Below, piece by piece: positions 40,907 to 49,500 of a stretch of 64,000 bases of DNA. The stretch covers positions 64,510-128,509 of the forward strand of contig CAZTQA010000001.1 of NCBI GenBank assembly GCA_964615205.1, written 5' to 3'. Each line of letters begins with the position of its first letter. Position 1 is the first letter of the stretch. Made by a program: the position numbers and the translations under genes. The notes beneath the pieces were generated by a model. The model was given only the letters and a program-made list of their open reading frames with translations. It had not been told where the DNA came from and made no database searches. Source of the stretch: an uncultured Candidatus Saccharibacteria bacterium (lineage in GTDB: Bacteria; Patescibacteriota; Minisyncoccia; Minisyncoccales; JAGMDC01).

Positions 40907-41128
40907 TGAAAATACAGGGGCAGTGCTTCTTTGAAAATTATATCAATAGTTTTTAACGGAGCCCTGCTGGATTATCTAGATTCTGGGACAAAATTTCTAT
41001 TTGGGGTTTGCGGTTTGTATAATCCTTGGGTTATACGACAAATCCCCACTTGGATTATTTTCCGGAGATTTCTAGAACCAGTAGGGTGTTAAGTTAAACT
41101 TTTACAAACACCGGGTGTTTGTTTTTTT
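40907..41128 (+). ncRNA. Candidate structured/untranslated RNA region ending in an intrinsic terminator
   Basis: About 220 nt with no ORF of 60 aa or more. Long imperfect hairpin GGGGTTTGcggttTGTATAA..TTATACgaCAAAtCCCC (about 41013-41057). Terminator ACAAACAC-cgg-GTGTTTGT+T6 at 41104-41128. Confidence 0.3.
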
Positions 41129-41131
41129 ATT

Positions 41132-41156
41132 AAAAAAAGGTGGCTCTTTAAGAGCC
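41132..41156 (-). terminator. Intrinsic terminator of the minus-strand gene (overlaps its stop codon)
   Basis: On the minus strand GGCTCT-taa-AGAGCC followed by ACC-T7. Confidence 0.5.
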
Positions 41157-41660
41157 AGCTTCGCCGAAAACTTCACCACCAATAACGATTGTTCCTGTTT
41201 GGAATGGTCCGTTTATTGCTAATATATTTGCTTCGCTAGTTAAAGCAATAGTTCTACCATTCTCTTGTGATGATTTGAGGGCTTGATTAGACAAGATTCT
41301 TCCTGAATCAACGAGTAAGAGCAGTGCGTTTACTCTGTCTTTTTTCTCAAGAGGCCAAAGCTTAATTTTGCAGTATGTGTTTTCAAGATTAGTTATAGTC
41401 GTGAAATCAATTCTGGCTGGTTCCTGAAATTGCATTTTTATTCGTTCGGTGACTTCAGAAGAAAAGAGTATTGGCACTTTTTTATCCTTGATTTGCGCGT
41501 CAACAGCTTTCACTAAGGGTTTTCGATGATCAAATATATGTGTTCTTGTAAACCCTTTGATTTCTAAAAGGACAAAATTCCTTTCGGAGGACAAAAGTAT
41601 TTTTGATATCTCTTCTGGTGGTATGATTATGTTTCCTGATATACCTTTATTTCTTTGCAT
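41148..41660 (-). CDS. Hypothetical protein (170 aa)
   Basis: Long ORF on the minority strand with its own terminator. No motif recognised. Visibly more G+C than its neighbours. Confidence 0.55.
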   Translation of the reverse strand: MQRNKGISGNIIIPPEEISKILLSSERNFVLLEIKGFTRTHIFDHRKPLVKAVDAQIKDKKVPILFSSEVTERIKMQFQEPARIDFTTITNLENTYCKIKLWPLEKKDRVNALLLLVDSGRILSNQALKSSQENGRTIALTSEANILAINGPFQTGTIVIGGEVFGEAGS

Positions 41661-41777
41661 TTAAGGTCCTACTTTCAGGATACAAAATCGCTTTCCAAAA
41701 AGCAAGAGGAAACCCTTGATTTTTTTGGATAAGTTATTAATATAAAAATAGCATCCAGCATAAAGAGGTGAAAAAAA

Positions 41778-42110
41778 ATGAACCATCTTTTTCTAGGAAA
41801 GGATGACATCATTGTCCTTGAATTTCCACCAGATCAACACCTTCCCACACTTTTTCCTGACATAGAAACAGCTGAAGAAAGGATATGGGGTTTAGTTATC
41901 CTTCCTAAAAGAGACAAATGGCGGTTAGAAGAACAAGAAACTTTGATTAATAGGACCCTGCTTGGCGAAAAAGGAAGCATTCTAGAGCAGCTAATCGGAG
42001 TTTTCAAACCTGGCAAATTAATCGGTTTTACCAATCTTCTGTCATATATGATAGAAGAAAGAAAAGATCTTTTTGAACGGAGCTTAGCTCGCTTTAGCGC
42101 TCAAGATTAA
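41778..42110 (+). CDS. Hypothetical protein (110 aa)
   Basis: ORF preceded by SD-like agaggtga 7 nt from the ATG and a TTGATT..TAATAT promoter-like pair. No motif recognised. Confidence 0.5.
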   Translation: MNHLFLGKDDIIVLEFPPDQHLPTLFPDIETAEERIWGLVILPKRDKWRLEEQETLINRTLLGEKGSILEQLIGVFKPGKLIGFTNLLSYMIEERKDLFERSLARFSAQD

Positions 42111-42118
42111 ACAAACCA

Positions 42119-42139
42119 GCCCTTCTGGGCCTTTTTTTA
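42119..42139 (+). terminator. Weak intrinsic terminator
   Basis: GCCC-ttct-GGGC followed by cT7. Confidence 0.45.
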
Positions 42140-42209
42140 TTATTCCCGGCGGCCGTTTATTGCCTAAAGCCCCAAAAAGAGGTAAATTAGTTATCCCCAG
42201 GAAAAGCCA

Positions 42210-42238
42210 TTGACCCAGAATAAATAGTCGGGTATCAT
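42210..42238 (+). promoter_or_regulatory. lexA promoter TTGACC-17-TATCAT, 6 nt from the ATG
   Basis: -35 at 42210-42215, -10 at 42233-42238, ATG at 42245. The spacer contains an ACCC-N13-GGGT inverted repeat (possible operator). Confidence 0.5.
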
Positions 42239-42244
42239 AAAGTA

Positions 42245-42892
42245 ATGGAAAAGCAGATAACAAAGAGACAAAAAGAACTATTATTTATTATCTACGAATA
42301 TATTAAAAATACAGGTTATCCGCCAACATTTGAAGAAATGAGAGAACGATTAAACGTTTCTTCAAATCAATCAGTAATTGATCTTCTAGAGAAATTAAAA
42401 CGAGCTAGTCTAATTAAACGTGAACAAGGTGGAGCAAGGAATATGATTATTCTTCCGTTTGGATATAAAATTCTTGGAGAACCGCCACTTCTTGCTTTTC
42501 TTGGTGTTTCTAGTGCTGGCGCGCCAATTGAGACAATAGAAATTTCTGGAGAATGGGAAACTCTATCTTCAGATGTTGATAAATTAGAGAAATTAAGTAA
42601 TGAAATTTTCCTATTGAAAATTTCAGGTGATTCTATGATTAACGCCGGGATTGAAAACGGCGATATTGTTTTAGTTAAAAATCAAAAAGAATTTGTTTCT
42701 GGCGATATTATTCTGGCTCAAATAGGTGATGAATCAACTATAAAAAGATTCATTTCAGAAGATAAACCTCCTTATATTTACTTGAAACCTGAAAATCCTG
42801 ATTACAACATAATTCCTTTTACCGAAGAAATGCAAATTAAAGGTAAAATTATTTCGGTATTAAAAAATAATTATTGGAAAAAAATTAAATAA
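42245..42892 (+). CDS. lexA: LexA-type repressor (winged HTH + S24 autopeptidase)
   Basis: LT.RQKELL.FI..Y....GYPPT..E start, Ala-Gly cleavage site (SSAGAP), catalytic GDSM Ser and TIKRF Lys. Confidence 0.85.
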   Translation: MEKQITKRQKELLFIIYEYIKNTGYPPTFEEMRERLNVSSNQSVIDLLEKLKRASLIKREQGGARNMIILPFGYKILGEPPLLAFLGVSSAGAPIETIEISGEWETLSSDVDKLEKLSNEIFLLKISGDSMINAGIENGDIVLVKNQKEFVSGDIILAQIGDESTIKRFISEDKPPYIYLKPENPDYNIIPFTEEMQIKGKIISVLKNNYWKKIK

Positions 42893-42907
42893 TTAATTTT
42901 TAAAATT

Positions 42908-44866
42908 ATGCCAACAAAAAAAATAAACAAAACAAAAGAGATAATTAACAAGGTTTTCCGAAATCCTGAAATTTCTTATGGCTTAAAAGAATTTGAAAAT
43001 ATTGACCTTGAAAAAGCTTTAGAAATCACAGAACAGGAAAGAGATAAATTTTATATTAGAGATCTTAAATCAAAAAAGTTAAAATTTGTTTTTGATAATA
43101 AAATTCAAAAGAGCAAACCCGAAGAAATTATTCGTCAATTGTGGCTTTACAAACTTAATGAATATTACAAATACCCATTTGAGAGAATTGATACGGAAAA
43201 AAGTATTCATTTTGGCAGAGAAATTCATGCTAAAGCTGCAGATATTGTGGTTTATAAGAAGGATAAAATAACGCCTTTTATTATTATAGAAGTCAAAAAC
43301 CCAACAGAGAAGAAAGGAATTGAACAACTTAAAAGCTATCTTTCTGCCGAAGGTTCAGAAATAGGTGTCTGGTCAAATGGTATAGAGCGGGTAATACTTT
43401 ATAGGCCTTATCCAAAAGAATTCCAGGATTCTTTAAGTGAAATACCTCGAGCGGATCAAACCATTGATGATTTATTTGAAATTAAGAAAACATGGCCAGA
43501 ATTAAATCCAAAATTTGATTTTGTGGAGATTATTAAAATAACAGAAGAATTAGCTCTGGCTGGTTCCGGAGTTAATGTTTTTGAGGAGATATTTAAAATT
43601 ATATATGCTAAACTTTATGACGAAAAATTAGCTATAGAACAGAGAGAAAATCAAGAAGTTCTTTTTAGAAAATATCGTGATCCTGAAAAAACATACGAAA
43701 TAATTAATGATGAACTTTTTAAGAAAGCTATTAATGAATGGCCTGATACTTTTGAAGAGTCAGAGCATATAAAACTTTCTCCTGCTCGATTAAATATTTG
43801 TGTTCCTTTCTTAGAGAATGTTCGACTTTTTGAATTAGGAAAAGGAGAAATGGAAATTATTGATAGTGCTTTCGAATATTTAATTACAGAGGTTTCCAGA
43901 GGTAAAAAGGGTCAATATTTTACACCGCGACATGTTATTAAAATGTGTGTGAGGATGTTAAATCCTAAAACAGAGGAACATGTTATTGATCCGGCTTGCG
44001 GCTCTGGAGGATTTCTTTTACATACAATGTATTATATTTGGGATAAATCAAAAACAGAAGAAGCTAAAAAAGATTACGCTTCTAAATATCTTTTTGGCAT
44101 TGATTTCGACGAAAATATGCGTCGTATCTCTCAAGCTTTGATGCTCATTGCCGGCGATGGTAAACATAATATTTTTAAAAGAGATTCTTTAGATGCCCGT
44201 GATTGGCAAGGAACAGAAAGTGAAGAGGCGAGAGTAGCTTTAAAATCTCATTTGATAAAAACAGAGAATTCATCGGAAATTAAAGAAAACCAATTAACTT
44301 ATAGAAAATTTGATTTTGATATTTTAATGACAAATCCGCCTTTTGCTGGCGAAAATCCGGAATCTGGTTTGCTCCGCCAATATGAGCTTGCTAAAAAAGA
44401 TGGAAAATTAAAAAGTAATGTTGAAAGGCATATTCTTTTTATTGAACGTTCTCTTGATGCTATACGACCTGGCGGAAGAATGGCCATTGTTTTACCTCAA
44501 GGAGTTTTGAATAATACTAATATGGGATATGTCAGAGATTATCTTTTTAATAAAGCAAGAATTTTAGCAGTGGTTGGGCTACATGGCAATACGTTTAAAC
44601 CCCATACTGGAACAAAGACAAGTGTTTTATTTTTACAGAAATGGGGCGGAGAAACGGGAAAACCATTAAAAGATTATAAAATTTTTATGGCGGTTTCCAA
44701 AAAAGCAGGTAAAGATAATTCTGGAGATTATGTCTATAAAAAAGATGAAAAAGGAAATTATGTTCATAATGAAAAAGGCCGAAAAGTTTTAGACCACGAT
44801 TTAGATGAAATTGCAGATGCTTTCATAAAATTCGCCAGAGACCAAAAATTTAATTTTTGGAAGTGA
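42908..44866 (+). CDS. PD-(D/E)xK nuclease-domain / N6-adenine DNA methyltransferase fusion (BcgI-A-like R-M subunit)
   Basis: N-terminal HsdR_N-type motif ADIVVYKKDKITPFIIIEVK (D-x15-E-x-K). MTase motif I IDPACGSGGFL and motif IV NPPFAG. 652 aa. Confidence 0.75.
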   Translation: MPTKKINKTKEIINKVFRNPEISYGLKEFENIDLEKALEITEQERDKFYIRDLKSKKLKFVFDNKIQKSKPEEIIRQLWLYKLNEYYKYPFERIDTEKSIHFGREIHAKAADIVVYKKDKITPFIIIEVKNPTEKKGIEQLKSYLSAEGSEIGVWSNGIERVILYRPYPKEFQDSLSEIPRADQTIDDLFEIKKTWPELNPKFDFVEIIKITEELALAGSGVNVFEEIFKIIYAKLYDEKLAIEQRENQEVLFRKYRDPEKTYEIINDELFKKAINEWPDTFEESEHIKLSPARLNICVPFLENVRLFELGKGEMEIIDSAFEYLITEVSRGKKGQYFTPRHVIKMCVRMLNPKTEEHVIDPACGSGGFLLHTMYYIWDKSKTEEAKKDYASKYLFGIDFDENMRRISQALMLIAGDGKHNIFKRDSLDARDWQGTESEEARVALKSHLIKTENSSEIKENQLTYRKFDFDILMTNPPFAGENPESGLLRQYELAKKDGKLKSNVERHILFIERSLDAIRPGGRMAIVLPQGVLNNTNMGYVRDYLFNKARILAVVGLHGNTFKPHTGTKTSVLFLQKWGGETGKPLKDYKIFMAVSKKAGKDNSGDYVYKKDEKGNYVHNEKGRKVLDHDLDEIADAFIKFARDQKFNFWK

Positions 44867-44873
44867 AAGATCC

Positions 44874-45356
44874 ATGAATATTGATGTAGAAAAATTTAAG
44901 AAAATCAAAGAAGAAGTTGAGGAATTTTATAAACAAATTAACGAAGTTTATTGCCCTTATTTTAAAGAAACCATATCCTTTAATGTAAAAGGATTAGATC
45001 ATATAAAATTTAAAGATTGGAACAGAACACGTCTTATTGAAGATCAATATTTTAGATTAAAATTCTTGAAATTAGCGCCAGAAGTTATAAAAAAATCTAA
45101 TACACTTCAGGAATACCGAGAAACACAAAACTTCGAAAGACAAAAAATAAATTCACGTTGGGAGCGGAGAATGACTCTGGTGAAATATTATGCCTTTATA
45201 GCTATTATGAATAGTGTGCGAATTAAAGTAATAATAAAAGAGATTACGGGTGGGAAAAAGTTTTTTTGGTCGATATGTCCTTTTTGGAAACAACGAAAAA
45301 AATATGATGGAACAATTGAAAAAGCCCTTTATGAGGGCAACTTAGAAACACAGTAA
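44874..45356 (+). CDS. Hypothetical protein (160 aa) inserted between the methylase and specificity genes
   Basis: ORF starts 8 nt after the methylase stop. Basic, no motif confidently recognised. Confidence 0.5.
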   Translation: MNIDVEKFKKIKEEVEEFYKQINEVYCPYFKETISFNVKGLDHIKFKDWNRTRLIEDQYFRLKFLKLAPEVIKKSNTLQEYRETQNFERQKINSRWERRMTLVKYYAFIAIMNSVRIKVIIKEITGGKKFFWSICPFWKQRKKYDGTIEKALYEGNLETQ

Positions 45357-45366
45357 AGTTTTAGTA

Positions 45367-45434
45367 GTACTTGTCTGCGGTTTAAAGGTCGTCCCTTTAT
45401 TGAACCGCGGGAGAGCCAAAGCCCTCACAAGTAC
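45367..45434. ncRNA. 68-nt Y-shaped (three-helix) structured element
   Basis: P1 GTACTTGT/ACAAGTAC (8 bp). P2 CTGCGGTTTAA/TTGAACCGCGG (11 bp, 2 G:U) with a 14-nt loop. P3 GAGAGC/GCCCTC (one mismatch) with a CAAA loop. G+C-rich in an AT-rich spacer. Strand undetermined. Confidence 0.4.
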
Positions 45435-45514
45435 CATTTATATATTATCATATTAATAATTTGCGTCAAGTGGAAAACCACAAAAGGCTGAAAATAAAAC
45501 AAAAATTTAGTTTT

Positions 45515-45542
45515 TAGAAATAACAAATTAGAAATAACAAAT
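45515..45542 (+). repeat. Perfect tandem duplication of the 14-mer TAGAAATAACAAAT abutting ATG 45543
   Basis: Units at 45515-45528 and 45529-45542. A third copy of AGAAATAACAAAT lies at 47584-47596. Confidence 0.9.
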
Positions 45543-46058
45543 ATGATTAAAACGATTAATAAATTTAGGCAGACTAAAAAGGAACGTAAAAATTCTTACT
45601 GGTTACCGCGAGAAGTACCACGAAAAATTTATAAGTTTCTAATGTCTTTAGGAGGAGATAGATTCTTTTTTGTTTTTGTAATTATAATTCCTGGAGGTAT
45701 AATTTTTATGAGATATCTAAAAGGAATTTCGTTTCCGCTATTGCCTACAGGAACGATGAACGAGATACTTAAAGTGATTGCGGGCTCTATTTTAATTGGG
45801 GTTTTAGTATTTTTAGGAACCGTGATTATTGAAACACGTAATAAGCTTGAAAAAAATAAATTAAAAAAAATATGGAAAGGAATTTTAACAGTAATTACCT
45901 TCGCCTTTAGTGTGGCAATTTTAAGCTTGAGTTTTATAGCTCTATCTGAATTTTTTCGCCAGCAAAATCTTGAAGTACCAATTTTGATTATAATATTCGC
46001 TCTCGTATACTATACTTTTTATTTAATTATCGATATACTTGAACATTCTTTTTTATAA
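45543..46058 (+). CDS. Hypothetical membrane protein (about 4 TM, 171 aa)
   Basis: Four hydrophobic helices. Sits between the methylase and specificity genes. Confidence 0.5.
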   Translation: MIKTINKFRQTKKERKNSYWLPREVPRKIYKFLMSLGGDRFFFVFVIIIPGGIIFMRYLKGISFPLLPTGTMNEILKVIAGSILIGVLVFLGTVIIETRNKLEKNKLKKIWKGILTVITFAFSVAILSLSFIALSEFFRQQNLEVPILIIIFALVYYTFYLIIDILEHSFL

Positions 46059-46066
46059 ACAGAATA

Positions 46067-47407
46067 ATGATTACTTATTCAATAATTAATAAAAGTCAAT
46101 TAGAAGGAAATTTGCGGCTGGATGCGGAATACTACCGGCCGGAGTATTTAGAGTTAATAGAAAATATTAATAATCTTGGTGCAGTACCAATAAGAAATAT
46201 GGTTGCAAATCCAAAGCGGAAGTTTAAACCACAAAAAGATAAAGTTTTTCAGTATATCGAAATTTCGGAAGTAGATTTATCAACTGGTGAATATAATAAA
46301 AGAGAAATTTTAGGGAGATATACTCCAGATCGGGCACAGTGGATTGTTAGACAAAATGATGTAATTATCTCTACTGTTCGACCGATTCGCAATGCGGTTT
46401 CTTTAATTAAAGAAGATATTGAAAATTTAGTTTGTTCATCTGGATTTGCTATCTTAAAACCAGAAAAAATTGAACCCGAATATTTATTTATTTATCTTAA
46501 ATCAAAACCCATAGTTGAACTTTTAGATAGGATGACAACTGCTACAATGTATCCAGCGATTACTGTTGAGGATATTTTAAAAACAAAAATATATTTAGGA
46601 AATCAAAAATTTAGAAATGAAATTAAAAATGAAGTTCTAGAGGCAGAAAAAGAAACAGAAAAATCAAAATCTTTTTACTCTCAAGCGGAAAATTTGCTTT
46701 TAGAGGAATTAGGACTAAAAGATTTTAAGGTTGAAGATGATTTGTTTTATGTCGTTAATCTTTCTAACGTAAAATCAGCCCATCGCACCGACGCCGAATA
46801 TTTCCAGCCGAAATATAGATTAATTGAAAAAAAATTGATTAAAGATTTTAAGGCCAAGAAAATAAGAGATTTTAACTTTATAGAAATAACAACAGGGCAA
46901 TATTCAGAAGAATATATTGAGGCGGCTTTAGGAAAACCATATATCCGTGGCACTGATTTATCAGGGACTATAACTGTAAAATTAGATAATTTAGTTTATA
47001 TAGATTCTAAGAAGCAATTATCTTCAAAAAAAGCAAAATGTGGAGATGTGGTAGTTACACGAGTAGGTACAGTAGGTATTAGCGCAAGATTACCAAAAGA
47101 AGTCGAAGGCGGTACTATAAGCGATAATTTGATAAGATTAAGTTTCCCAGAAGAAAGGTTAAATTCTTATTATGTAAGCTTATTTTTAAATTCTATCGGA
47201 TCTCAATTTATGATTCGTGAAAGCAGGGGAAGTGTTCAGTCGAGATTAAACCAAGAAACACTAAAAGAAATCGTATTGCCGGTTTTGCCAAAAGCTACCC
47301 AGCAGAAGATTGCGGATTTGGTTCGAAAATCTCACGAAGCTCGCAAAAAAGCTAAGGAATTATTAGAAGAAGCAAAAACAAAAGTCGAAAAATTAATTGA
47401 AAAATAA
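46067..47407 (+). CDS. hsdS: Restriction-modification specificity subunit (HsdS-type, two target-recognition domains)
   Basis: Duplicated architecture with conserved starts LRLDAEYYRPEY and HRTDAEYFQPKY, and central and C-terminal coiled-coil spacers. Confidence 0.85.
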   Translation: MITYSIINKSQLEGNLRLDAEYYRPEYLELIENINNLGAVPIRNMVANPKRKFKPQKDKVFQYIEISEVDLSTGEYNKREILGRYTPDRAQWIVRQNDVIISTVRPIRNAVSLIKEDIENLVCSSGFAILKPEKIEPEYLFIYLKSKPIVELLDRMTTATMYPAITVEDILKTKIYLGNQKFRNEIKNEVLEAEKETEKSKSFYSQAENLLLEELGLKDFKVEDDLFYVVNLSNVKSAHRTDAEYFQPKYRLIEKKLIKDFKAKKIRDFNFIEITTGQYSEEYIEAALGKPYIRGTDLSGTITVKLDNLVYIDSKKQLSSKKAKCGDVVVTRVGTVGISARLPKEVEGGTISDNLIRLSFPEERLNSYYVSLFLNSIGSQFMIRESRGSVQSRLNQETLKEIVLPVLPKATQQKIADLVRKSHEARKKAKELLEEAKTKVEKLIEK

Positions 47408-47658
47408 ATAAAATGTGTTTTGATTTTAATATAATAAAAAATTTATTTCTGAAGCTTAGTATAGGAAAAAAGAAAAAAAATTCAATTGGTATATTGAATA
47501 AAGGGAGAGATAATAAATTTATAAATAATAAAGTTGATGGATTTGATATAGGTATGAAAGATGAAGGAAAGAATACTGAAGCAAGAAATAACAAATTTAA
47601 GAAATAAGGAAAAAGTTTTTTAAATTAAAATAATCAAAATTTAGGCCGAAATTAAAAT

Positions 47659-48870
47659 ATGAATAACAGATATTCGCCGTCGAAATTGAATACTTTTAGT
47701 GGTTGTAAACTTCAATATAAATACAAATATATTGATAACCTTAAATCTGACTTAACAACCATTGAAAATTTCTTGGGATCAAGGGTTCATGAAACTCTGG
47801 AAAATTTTTATAAATTAGTGAAAAACAGCCGCGTTGAATCACTTAATTGGCTTTTAAAAGAATATGAAAATCTCTGGAAAAAGAATTTTGATGACAGCAT
47901 AAAAATTATTAGAAAGGATTTAACCGCTGAAGATTATTTTAATAAAGGAAAGCAATGCCTTGTTGATTATTATAATAGTTATAAGCCATTCAATCAGGCA
48001 AAAATTGTTGAAATAGAGTATCATGCTGATTTTGAAGTTGAAGATAACGGATCTAAATATTTATTCAATGGTTATTTGGACAGATTAGATTGGGATGATA
48101 AGAATAGTGTTTTTGAGATTCATGATTATAAAACATCCAATAAATTAATGACTCAGGAAGAAGCAGATAACAATTGGCAGCTTGGACTTTATAATCTTGC
48201 ATTAAAAGAAAAATGGCCGGACGCTCAAAAGGTAAAGCTTATCTGGCACGCACTGCCGTTTAATAAAGAAATAATATCATACAGAACAAATGACCAGCTT
48301 GAAGAATTGCAGAAAGATATTATTGAAAAGGTAAAAGAGATAGAATCGTGCAGAGATTTTCCATCCAAGAAAAGCGCTCTTTGCGACTGGTGTGATTTTC
48401 AAAATATCTGTCCTTTATGGAAACATCCAAAAGAAATGGAAGCAATTTCGGTTAACGAATACAAGAAAAACCCTGGCGTGAAATTGGTAACCGCATATAA
48501 AGACTTAGATGAAAAGAAAAATGAGCTTCAGGAGGAAATTAAAAAGATAGAAGAAGAGCAGGGAAAAATTGCTGAAGCAGCAATAGATTTTGCCAAGAAA
48601 AACAATATATCAGTTATTGACGGGCCAGATATAAAATTAAAAGTGGATATAAAAACCGAGTTAAGGCCTCCTGCTAAAGCTGAAAATGAAGAAAAATGGT
48701 GGCAATTAAGGGAGCTTTTAATAAAAGAGGGCAGATTTCAAGATGTATCTACAATAAATGCCAATATGATGACATATAAAATAAAAGGATGGCCGGCTGA
48801 ATTAGTGGATAAAATATCCAAATTCCTTATTAGCAAAACAACCGAAACAGTTAAATTAATTAAAAAATAA
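47659..48870 (+). CDS. PD-(D/E)xK nuclease, RecB/Cas4-like with Cys cluster, plus about 150-aa C-terminal extension
   Basis: YSPSKL..F..C..Y start, GSRVHETLE, LDRLD..EIHDYKTS (D..D/E-x-K), QLGLY, CDWCDFQNIC. Confidence 0.7.
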   Translation: MNNRYSPSKLNTFSGCKLQYKYKYIDNLKSDLTTIENFLGSRVHETLENFYKLVKNSRVESLNWLLKEYENLWKKNFDDSIKIIRKDLTAEDYFNKGKQCLVDYYNSYKPFNQAKIVEIEYHADFEVEDNGSKYLFNGYLDRLDWDDKNSVFEIHDYKTSNKLMTQEEADNNWQLGLYNLALKEKWPDAQKVKLIWHALPFNKEIISYRTNDQLEELQKDIIEKVKEIESCRDFPSKKSALCDWCDFQNICPLWKHPKEMEAISVNEYKKNPGVKLVTAYKDLDEKKNELQEEIKKIEEEQGKIAEAAIDFAKKNNISVIDGPDIKLKVDIKTELRPPAKAENEEKWWQLRELLIKEGRFQDVSTINANMMTYKIKGWPAELVDKISKFLISKTTETVKLIKK

Positions 48871-48879
48871 AATAAAATT

Positions 48880-49083
48880 GTGAAAAAGAATATTATAAAA
48901 AAGGAAGTTTTTGATAGAGAAATTAGCCTTTGTAGGATGTTGTCAAAAAAGAATAAAGGAAAGTGCGCTTGGGGAAAATGTAAAGATTGCGGGGTTATTC
49001 CTCTGCTTTATAAATTACACAAAGGAAAGTTATTGGAGAAATCAGCTGAATTAGCTAAAATAAGGAAAAAGATTTTTAAATAA
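48880..49083 (+). CDS. Small Cys-rich protein (67 aa)
   Basis: GTG start. C-x12-C-x4-C-x2-C pattern (SLCRML..GKCAWGKCKDCG). Confidence 0.4.
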   Translation: MKKNIIKKEVFDREISLCRMLSKKNKGKCAWGKCKDCGVIPLLYKLHKGKLLEKSAELAKIRKKIFK

Positions 49084-49089
49084 GAGATT

Positions 49090-49467
49090 ATGAATAAACA
49101 GCTCGCAAAACAAATTGAATATCTCGAGGTTTCATTATTACAGCCAGAAGTTCGTAGATCAGCAAAAAGAATCAGTGAATTGCTCGCTGATGAATTTGTT
49201 GAATTTGGAATGTTCGGAAAAATATACTCTAAACAGGATTTCTTAGAGCTTTTGCCGAATTCTGAAGAAGAAAAATTTGAGAGATATAAGGCTTCAAATT
49301 TTGAAGCAAAAGAAATTACTCCAGATACAGTTCTTTTAACATATAAGGCATCTATAGAATTCCTTAAAACCAATGAAATGGTTTGGACGCTTCGTTGTTC
49401 AATCTGGCAAAAGCGCAGCGAAAACTGGCAAATGATTTTTCATCAAGGAACTGTGATTAAAAATTAG
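49090..49467 (+). CDS. SnoaL/NTF2-like protein (DUF4440-like)
   Basis: ..L.ELLADEFVEFG..G......D.L........ and ...W.R....WQ..FHQGT pattern. 125 aa. Confidence 0.55.
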   Translation: MNKQLAKQIEYLEVSLLQPEVRRSAKRISELLADEFVEFGMFGKIYSKQDFLELLPNSEEEKFERYKASNFEAKEITPDTVLLTYKASIEFLKTNEMVWTLRCSIWQKRSENWQMIFHQGTVIKN

Positions 49468-49477
49468 TGAGTGAAAG

Positions 49478-49500
49478 TGTTAGACACTGAGTGTCTAACA
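49478..49500 (+). terminator. Perfect 10-bp hairpin (TGTTAGACAC-tga-GTGTCTAACA) without a U-tract
   Basis: Read directly. It lies 10 nt after the stop at 49467. No T-run follows, so its terminator function is uncertain. Confidence 0.35.

Follow-up and report, generated by a model that had tools for sequence, protein, structure and literature searches.

A lexA gene at the head of a Type IIB-like restriction-modification module in Patescibacteria, with a predicted link to DNA damage

Restriction-modification (R-M) operons governed by C proteins, such as C.PvuII, C.AhdI and C.Esp1396I, have a regulator gene that is co-transcribed with the nuclease gene, controls its own expression, and travels with the cassette. 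The 64-kb stretch of Patescibacteria DNA analysed here (contig CAZTQA010000001.1 of assembly GCA_964615205.1, positions 64,510 to 128,509; hereafter the window) is AT-rich (~34% GC) with nearly all of its genes on the + strand, and contains a module of similar layout, in which lexA is followed by a gene for a nuclease-methyltransferase subunit (RM), a slot with two cargo genes, and a gene for a specificity (S) subunit. As in the C-protein operons, the regulator gene comes first, is co-oriented with and tightly linked to the nuclease gene, and has a palindrome in its promoter; co-transcription and autoregulation are predicted for the module, and a cassette-borne lexA is present in one related locus (L072). 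Unlike the C-protein operons, the regulator is LexA, with a winged helix and an S24 domain, rather than a C protein of the XRE helix-turn-helix type, and it would be expected to act only as a repressor and to bring in an input from RecA and DNA damage. Assignment of the module to the C-protein-operon family was rejected, as the regulator is identified as LexA by both Pfam and the NCBIfam model TIGR00498. We consider it likely that one LexA-repressed promoter drives lexA and RM, that translation of RM is coupled to that of lexA, and that RecA-triggered cleavage of LexA raises R-M output.

Two other types of described system bear comparison. Canonical SOS loci are exemplified by lexA-dinF in E. 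coli and by the Cheo box, GAAC-N4-GTTC, in B. subtilis. The module resembles these in having an intact LexA with the self-cleavage residues, a putative palindromic operator over its own promoter, and downstream genes that are predicted to be transcribed with lexA, and differs in that the partner of lexA is an R-M system and not a repair or division gene. Many copies of the box in related loci have the form GAAC-N4-(G/A)GTC (e.g. AGAACATATGGTCGGG), similar to the Gram-positive motif, but with GTC(G/A)G in place of GTTC as the right half-site. Regulators that respond to DNA damage are also known for the defence systems CBASS (cyclic oligonucleotide-based antiphage signalling) and BREX (bacteriophage exclusion), namely CapW/BrxR, which have a WYL domain, and CapH-CapP. 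As in those systems, a repressor adjoins a defence system and is predicted to be released by DNA damage or single-stranded DNA; however, those regulators are dedicated accessories of systems that are patchily distributed, whereas the module would use the global SOS repressor in a wiring that is kept across many lineages. A related WYL regulator is described in PMC10693628. A 2013 review of R-M regulation refers to LexA only in connection with toxin-antitoxin systems and SOS induction, and never as an R-M regulator (PMC3874152). Our full-text literature searches returned no description of a LexA-led R-M operon; a 2017 study of the SOS network in Patescibacteria lay outside their coverage, and a prior description is possible. 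That study, by Sánchez-Osuna, Barbé and Erill in Environ Microbiol (19:3465; cited in PMC8565304), is reportedly a comparative analysis of the Patescibacteria SOS regulon.

The window lexA gene (42245..42892, + strand) codes for a 215-aa protein with a winged-helix DNA-binding domain (LexA_DNA_bind PF01726, E 5e-14) and an S24 self-cleaving domain (Peptidase_S24 PF00717, E 2e-25), and its score of 140.8 bits passes the TIGR00498 lexA equivalog cut-off of 110.95. Residues A91-G92 (in SSAGAP), S130 (in GDSM) and K167 (in TIKRF) align opposite E. coli LexA A84-G85, S119 and K156 and show no variation across 16 aligned LexA sequences. In the same alignment conservation of the S24 domain equals that of the DNA-binding domain. 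Neither the Ala-Gly site nor the Ser/Lys dyad varies, and this, together with the equal constraint on the domain that carries them, suggests that self-cleavage is under selection. Hundreds of LexA proteins are 65–85% identical to that of the window; the named top matches are labelled Patescibacteria/Candidate Phyla Radiation (CPR) or Saganbacteria, or are unclassified ('bacterium', 'marine sediment metagenome'), and on this basis the window is a piece of a Patescibacteria chromosome. By these comparisons the window gene is a conserved Patescibacteria lexA orthologue with no R-M-specific oddity.

The adjacent gene (42908..44866, + strand) encodes the 652-aa RM subunit, in which an N-terminal PD-(D/E)xK nuclease is fused to a gamma-class N6-adenine methyltransferase (Pfam HSDR_N_2, E 9e-21; N6_Mtase, E 6e-38; also Eco57I; PADLOC model MTase_I PDLC03034, 557 bits). 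The nuclease residues D112 and E128-x-K130 and the methyltransferase motifs DPACGSGGF (S-adenosylmethionine-binding) and NPPF (476–479) are invariant in 24 diverse homologues. Source annotations label these proteins 'type I M protein' or 'N-6 DNA methylase', and the former masks the fusion. The S gene (46067..47407, + strand) begins 1.2 kb downstream of RM and encodes a 446-aa protein with two target-recognition domains (TRDs), which matches Pfam Methylase_S and is hit by the PADLOC Specificity_I models in two stretches (approximately residues 43–206 and 262–420). S homologues lie 3′ of RM in the related species loci, mostly at 29–39% identity to the window S and in three cases at 57–70%, and the mean pairwise identity among S subunits is 0.38, compared with 0.69 among RM proteins and 0.62 among LexA proteins.

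RM and S are best described as a Type IIB-like system in the style of BcgI and BsaXI, for which two-sided cleavage is predicted only. This description is preferred because the nuclease and the gamma-class N6-adenine methyltransferase share one polypeptide, the closest solved structure to RM is the BsaXI RM subunit (8w0p; E 3e-26, 95.5 bits), the S subunit is separate and has two TRDs, and the module appears to have no ATP-dependent translocase: no helicase or SNF2 gene is present in the conserved module of any surveyed locus, although an hsdR elsewhere in a genome is possible. The relationship to BsaXI is nonetheless a distant one, as the 95.5-bit score indicates, and the BsaXI RM subunit is longer (916 aa versus 652); moreover, in the module a cargo slot splits the RM and S genes and lexA stands at the head. 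The nearest NCBIfam models are those of MADS, the methylation-associated defence system (models exist for MAD2, MAD3 and MAD5), with MAD2 scoring 297 bits against RM (cut-off 720) and MAD5 scoring 141 bits against S (cut-off 400); a single cargo protein, from a different locus, is hit by mad3. Membership in MADS was rejected, since the scores are far under the equivalog cut-offs and only MAD2-like and MAD5-like genes are present in the window, where a PADLOC scan reports no other mad genes.

Relatives were surveyed using 80 lexA loci, one per GTDB species, that were recovered with two LexA peptide patterns and whose record labels include Parcubacteria-type, Microgenomates-type, Doudnabacteria and Peregrinibacteria lineages, and two Saganbacteria; the 65 loci that extend 2.1 kb or more past lexA are termed informative. 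In 50 of the 65, a full-length homologue of the 652-aa protein (61–84% identity) is the immediate next gene, and in three more it follows an intervening gene for a small membrane protein, such that RM is behind lexA in 53 of 65. When the query is reversed and the RM protein is used as the starting point, lexA with its operator box is immediately upstream in 64 of 75 informative metagenome loci. The genes flanking the module are unrelated housekeeping genes.

Of the 12 informative loci that lack this RM family behind lexA, 10 have the slot occupied by another R-M system or by a DNA methyltransferase. Nine of these are a C5 methyltransferase with R.HinP1I (L073), two N6_N4 methyltransferases with an HNH/AlwI-like nuclease (L069), an Eco57I-type methyltransferase and a weak, Tsp45I-like match (L013; E 6e-4, under the Pfam cut-off), an N6_N4 methyltransferase with TdeIII (L058), N6_Mtase with a short S subunit (L050 and L052), an N6_Mtase-S fusion protein (L014), an 808-aa gene followed by an N6_N4 methyltransferase (L054), and a truncated RM with S (L019). 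No recognisable methyltransferase lies behind lexA in the other two (L051 and L068). The tenth replacement, in L072 (1880-4261), has a 5′ remnant of RM (MPTIKPNKAEDVIGKIFKNEEAVYGLKES) after lexA, followed by a second promoter with a variant of the box (ACTGACTATATAGTCAGT) and a second lexA (2023-2640), and then an N6_N4 methyltransferase and an MvaI/BcnI nuclease. The second LexA is 47% identical to the first and retains both the domains and the cleavage residues. An R-M cassette can therefore carry its own lexA, as this second lexA and its box head the MvaI/BcnI cassette.

R-M genes make up a small fraction of these genomes, and because of this rarity the presence of an R-M or methyltransferase gene behind lexA in 63 of 65 species is not attributable to chance; and because unrelated R-M systems substitute for one another at a fixed position, the linkage itself appears to be under selection. 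The RM proteins fall into three subtypes (identity 0.76 within and 0.64 between), whereas LexA identity is nearly the same whether two loci share an RM subtype (0.63) or not (0.62; Spearman 0.20). The RM subtypes thus ignore the LexA phylogeny, from which it follows that the R-M part has been swapped between lineages while the architecture was kept, a pattern in keeping with a defence cassette whose slot is constant and regulated. The sequence-only reading of this stretch had put LexA in the position of an R-M controller that would tie R-M expression to DNA damage, and regarded this as unusual regulation; the reading gains strong comparative support from the recurrence of the arrangement, from the spacing described below and from the replacement by other R-M types, whereas the idea that this lexA is an oddity does not hold, since it is a conserved orthologue. 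The Type IIB-like nature of the system and its separate S subunit are additions to that picture.

Upstream of lexA there is a sigma-70-type promoter, TTGACC-17-TATCAT (42210..42238, + strand), that matches the consensus at 10 of 12 positions. A consensus scan of the + strand from 41000 to 49000 finds three sites that reach this score and none that exceeds it, and only this one is upstream of lexA and RM. The entire spacer between the −35 and −10 hexamers is occupied by an 18-bp putative LexA operator, CCAGAATAAATAGTCGGG (42215..42232, + strand), with the core GAM-N6-GTC, which abuts both hexamers and whose perfect palindromic form is CCCGACTA-N2-TAGTCGGG. The box keeps this place in the promoter in 76 of 77 lexA loci, one per species, many copies having the form AGAAC-N4-GGTC, and nearly all of the species loci share the layout TTGAC-n-CC(A/C)GA(A/C)(T/C)A(A/T)(A/T)T(A/G)GTCGGG-TATAAT with the ATG 6–9 nt later. 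The ATG of the window lexA is 6 nt past the −10 hexamer, and because the distance is so short throughout, the lexA mRNAs of the window and its relatives are probably leaderless or nearly so. Promoter-like sites matching at least 10 of 12 positions are found upstream of lexA in 59% of loci, compared with 5% for the lexA 3′ end and 1% for random coding windows.

A position-weight matrix built from the 76 box sites (information 23.9 bits) gives the window box a score of 30.2, with a runner-up independent site in the 64 kb at 10.9, a result well outside chance expectation, and a scan with the matrix finds no further strong LexA box within the module or in the rest of the window. In 1.47 Mb of related loci, a sample that is biased toward lexA neighbourhoods and says little about whole genomes, there are eight extra box-like sites, all of them weaker, against one in reversed-sequence controls. 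The best of these (in L155) was discarded as a LexA box, as it coincides with a terminator-like GC hairpin after a gene. The box spans the spacer and touches both hexamers, and therefore a protein bound to it would block RNA polymerase. That protein is presumably LexA, in light of the palindromy, position and conservation of the box beside a recognition helix (SSNQSxIDLL) that is almost invariant across loci, with one paralogue differing, and of the variant box that precedes the second lexA in L072. A comparison of loci with GTCGG and GTCAG boxes for covariation between helix and operator was uninformative, as the helix hardly varies.

Two further elements lie upstream of the promoter. A DnaA-box-like 9-mer, TTATCCCCA (42190..42198, + strand), is 11 nt 5′ of the −35 hexamer and has one mismatch to TTATCCACA. 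In the 77 species loci, TTATCCACA is present upstream of lexA exactly in 30 and with one mismatch in 21, compared with 0.9% and 4% of random windows, respectively, and its position is constant at −52 to −56 relative to the lexA ATG. This suggests that the lexA-RM promoter may have a second, replication-linked input. Further upstream, and 3′ of a gene for a 110-aa protein, is a GC hairpin, GCCC-UUCU-GGGC followed by U7 (42119..42138, + strand; −7.5 kcal/mol, z = −1.3), which is a probable weak terminator that would shield the lexA operon from upstream transcription.

The last base of the lexA stop codon is 42892 and the RM start codon, ATG, begins at 42908, leaving a junction of 15 nt (TTAATTTTTAAAATT; 42893..42907, + strand) in which a consensus scan finds no promoter- or terminator-like site and which has no Shine-Dalgarno sequence; the only fold predicted for its RNA is a weak hairpin made entirely of A/U pairs (−2.7 kcal/mol). 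Distances were measured from the conserved RM start, ATG CCN ACN (M-P-T), in both genomes and metagenomes, and by this measure 102 of 112 lexA-RM pairs are separated by −23 to +25 nt (median 4). Some of the gaps are overlapping stop and start codons (TAATG), and a Shine-Dalgarno-like tetramer is present in seven of the gaps. No promoter matching at 11 or more of 12 positions is present in the lexA 3′ end in the 56 loci scanned. Coordinates and scan agree with the sequence-only reading, which had the nuclease-methylase gene starting 15 nt after lexA on the same strand without a promoter or terminator between them. Its other observations at this locus are also borne out: the promoter is present, the self-cleavage set of Ala-Gly, Ser and Lys is complete and invariant in the 16 sequences, and the ACCC-N13-GGGT inverted repeat is there as the outer edge of the 18-bp box that is kept in 76 of 77 loci. 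The repeat is remarkable because it is part of this conserved box; its 4-bp arm would by itself be unremarkable.

Some junctions are longer. In L124 the spacer is 90 nt and consists of four tandem copies of a ~21-nt unit (TTATTCGAAGAAAAGCTTTGC). In nine of the 112 pairs a gene for a protein of ~125 aa is wedged between lexA and RM (L029:5936-6379, L030:6649-7032, L032:6641-7012 and L036:6614-7015; also L105, L129, L130, L132 and L164). These proteins have a conserved N-terminus, HDNTEE-x-LI-x-VPPSVL-x-NKL, and, as judged by eye, hydrophobic, transmembrane-like stretches. Small membrane proteins that inhibit division adjoin lexA in other bacteria (yneA and chiZ), and by analogy the ~125-aa protein might be an SOS cell-division inhibitor.

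We propose that lexA, RM, the two cargo genes and S form one module under a single LexA-autorepressed promoter. LexA would sit on the 18-bp box in the −35/−10 spacer and block RNA polymerase, and RM translation would be coupled to that of lexA through the very short junction that lacks a ribosome-binding site, such that in the unstressed cell LexA and the Type IIB-like enzyme would be expressed together at a low level that limits itself. RecA filaments formed on single-stranded DNA, as a result of DNA damage, stalled replication, phage replication, or the processing of restricted or incoming DNA, would promote LexA self-cleavage at A91-G92, the promoter would open, and RM output would increase; the cargo genes and S would rise as well, to whatever extent they are co-transcribed. 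LexA would thereby take the role that the C protein has in classical R-M operons, with the addition of a DNA-damage input. Binding of LexA to the box, co-transcription, induction by DNA damage and the advantage of the wiring are all inferred from sequence, and as to the advantage, our preferred reading is a feed-forward boost of restriction and of re-methylation when foreign or damaged DNA is present. More tentatively, and with somewhat less than even confidence, we suggest that in many and possibly all Patescibacteria/CPR lineages LexA may be the hard-wired controller of a swappable R-M system (IIB, IIP, IIS or IIG-like) and a defence slot, with some cassettes bringing a lexA of their own and the DnaA-box-like element adding an input from replication status.

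Several considerations weigh against this proposal. Induction of a nuclease during DNA damage would seem risky, and is the opposite of the 'restriction alleviation' that is classical for Type I systems. All of the argument that LexA binds the box comes from conservation, palindromy and position, and a motif search finds no recA in the 64-kb window. Weaker promoter-like sites (9/12) are found in the lexA 3′ end at 34%, compared with 19% in random coding sequence, and RM could thus conceivably have a low basal promoter that is independent of LexA. Within the module, the 186-nt gap between the two cargo genes (45357..45542, + strand) has two 9/12 promoter-like sites (45424-45451 and 45520-45547), and may include a secondary promoter for the second cargo gene and S, which would make S partly independent. 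Finally, the locus percentages are those of this LexA clade and not of all Patescibacteria genomes.

An alternative is that R-M and defence cassettes merely tend to insert 3′ of lexA, which would have no bearing on regulation, with RM expressed from a promoter of its own inside the end of lexA and independently of LexA. Cassette exchange, which is implied by the uncoupling of the RM subtypes from the LexA phylogeny (0.63 versus 0.62), is what such a hot-spot would produce, and the RM 5′ remnant that L072 retains beside a newly arrived cassette, the unrelated housekeeping genes at the module flanks and the mild enrichment of weak promoter-like sites in the lexA 3′ end are all in keeping with it. 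However, a hot-spot leaves unexplained why 102 of 112 pairs have tight gaps without ribosome-binding sites, why there are TAATG overlaps, why unrelated R-M types are placed just as tightly, and why a cassette should have its own lexA and box; with no promoter of at least 11/12 in the lexA 3′ end of 56 loci, we regard this explanation as improbable. A different view of the RM and S genes is that they do not restrict at all and instead act as a methyltransferase, whether housekeeping or epigenetic, or as a nuclease for repair, which would be an SOS member in its own right. RM is nearly universal behind lexA, and its conservation is high for a defence gene (mean identity 0.69, compared with 0.62 for LexA); yet the nuclease D...ExK residues are invariant along with the methyltransferase motifs, the nearest solved relative, BsaXI, is a genuine restriction enzyme of Type IIB, the sequence of S varies greatly, as would be expected from diversifying selection on specificity, the slot between RM and S gathers defence genes, and the replacements are classical R-M pairs with the known nucleases HinP1I, MvaI/BcnI and TdeIII. 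A role other than restriction is accordingly very unlikely.

It is also unlikely, though in part compatible with the LexA-repressed operon that we prefer, that this LexA is a dedicated, C-protein-like controller that sets and steadies R-M levels through autoregulation, with an SOS/RecA input that is slight or vestigial and a wider regulon that is small or absent. The single strong box in 64 kb, the near absence of boxes outside lexA promoters in 1.47 Mb of related loci, and the lexA paralogue that travels with a type II cassette would all be accounted for by such a controller. The bias of the box scan toward lexA neighbourhoods makes it weak with respect to the whole genome, however, and the invariance of the Ala-Gly site and the Ser and Lys residues, together with an S24 domain as conserved as the DNA-binding domain, argues for selection on self-cleavage; the 2017 study cited above also reportedly describes an SOS regulon in Patescibacteria. 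We favour the operon in which LexA both represses R-M and responds to RecA.

The slot between RM and S has two genes in the window. The first (44874..45356, + strand) encodes a 160-aa protein with no match in Pfam, NCBIfam or PADLOC, which belongs to a family of at least 152 homologues, a few of them tagged PF18798; the named homologues are mostly from Patescibacteria or 'bacterium', with one from a Flavobacterium sp. Its predicted structure is confident (predicted local distance difference test, pLDDT, of 86) and has no fold match in the PDB (best E 0.6). The same gene is in the same slot in L031 and L037. The second (45543..46058, + strand) encodes a hydrophobic, 171-aa predicted membrane protein for which there is no homologue among the surveyed loci. 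Across these loci the slot has 0–4 same-strand genes, whose 51 proteins form 38 sequence clusters, and the families represented include DUF3800 (PDC-M04A), NYN, DUF4145, PBECR3, a RiboL-PSP HEPN domain, RnlA, OLD/GajA/AriA-like ATPase-TOPRIM, GIY-YIG and AbiLi; by these family matches many of the slot genes belong to defence-associated families. Accessory defence genes are embedded in some Type I R-M loci as well, such as prrC in the hsd locus. The module is like these in having a hypervariable slot for defence genes between the methyltransferase and S genes, and unlike them in that the host system is Type IIB-like and the entire module is behind lexA.

We take the module to be lexA-RM-cargo-S. 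A PD-(D/E)XK/Cas4-like gene downstream (47659-48870) was considered as a further member and rejected, because the genes 3′ of S in other loci are unrelated housekeeping genes. This gene and a 67-aa open reading frame (ORF) are flanked by a 24-nt direct repeat, AAATAAGGAAAAAG(T/A)TTTTTAAAT (47602-47625 and 49058-49081; 96% identical), which may mark an inserted cassette. Repeats found elsewhere in a scan of 41000-49500 were AT-rich chance repeats. A search of the window for structured RNAs with Rfam returned one tRNA alone, and ARAGORN reports two tRNAs.

Among the RM loci without lexA are L117, L120, L128, L149, L151, L152, L160, L163 and L165, and in eight of these nine there is a RadC-type gene ahead of RM, with a UPF0758_N helix-hairpin-helix domain and with or without the RadC JAB domain (the assignment in L151 and L160 is by ORF size only). 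L120 has a gene for a 72-aa XRE helix-turn-helix protein ahead of the RadC-type gene, a 396-aa gene intervenes in L149, and a DUF3800 gene lies between RadC and RM in L163 and L165. A UPF0758_N gene also follows lexA in L068 (6660-7004). The RadC-type protein would be a second DNA-repair-associated partner of the same R-M family.

Two loci labelled 'Candidatus Saganbacteria' (L012 and L015) have the same lexA promoter and box together with RM, and a LexA that is 67% identical; L012 has S as well, and the L015 record ends past RM. Saganbacteria are not a CPR lineage, and thus either the labels are wrong or the module reaches beyond Patescibacteria. The labels Gammaproteobacteria or Saccharibacteria on several third party annotation (TPA) records seem wrong as well. 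Outside this group, plasmids from Klebsiella and from cyanobacteria carry the same RM and S pair at 40–45% identity. The gene table of the Klebsiella plasmid, which is possibly incomplete, shows no lexA upstream of the pair. The link to lexA appears specific to this group, judged from that single outside example.

Patescibacteria account for a large share of bacterial diversity, and by published accounts most of them have no CRISPR and probably depend on R-M systems. Across the surveyed loci the LexA-led R-M wiring is the norm and not a curiosity, which suggests that the main DNA defence of this group may be under DNA-damage control. If R-M is generally expressed from a LexA-repressed promoter, then defence would be tied to signals of DNA damage and single-stranded DNA, the reverse of the restriction alleviation seen with Type I systems. 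R-M controllers would then include a new class, the cargo slot would be a fixed chromosomal site at which to find new defence genes, and the promoter and its operator would offer a simple, testable element for the first genetic tools in these organisms.

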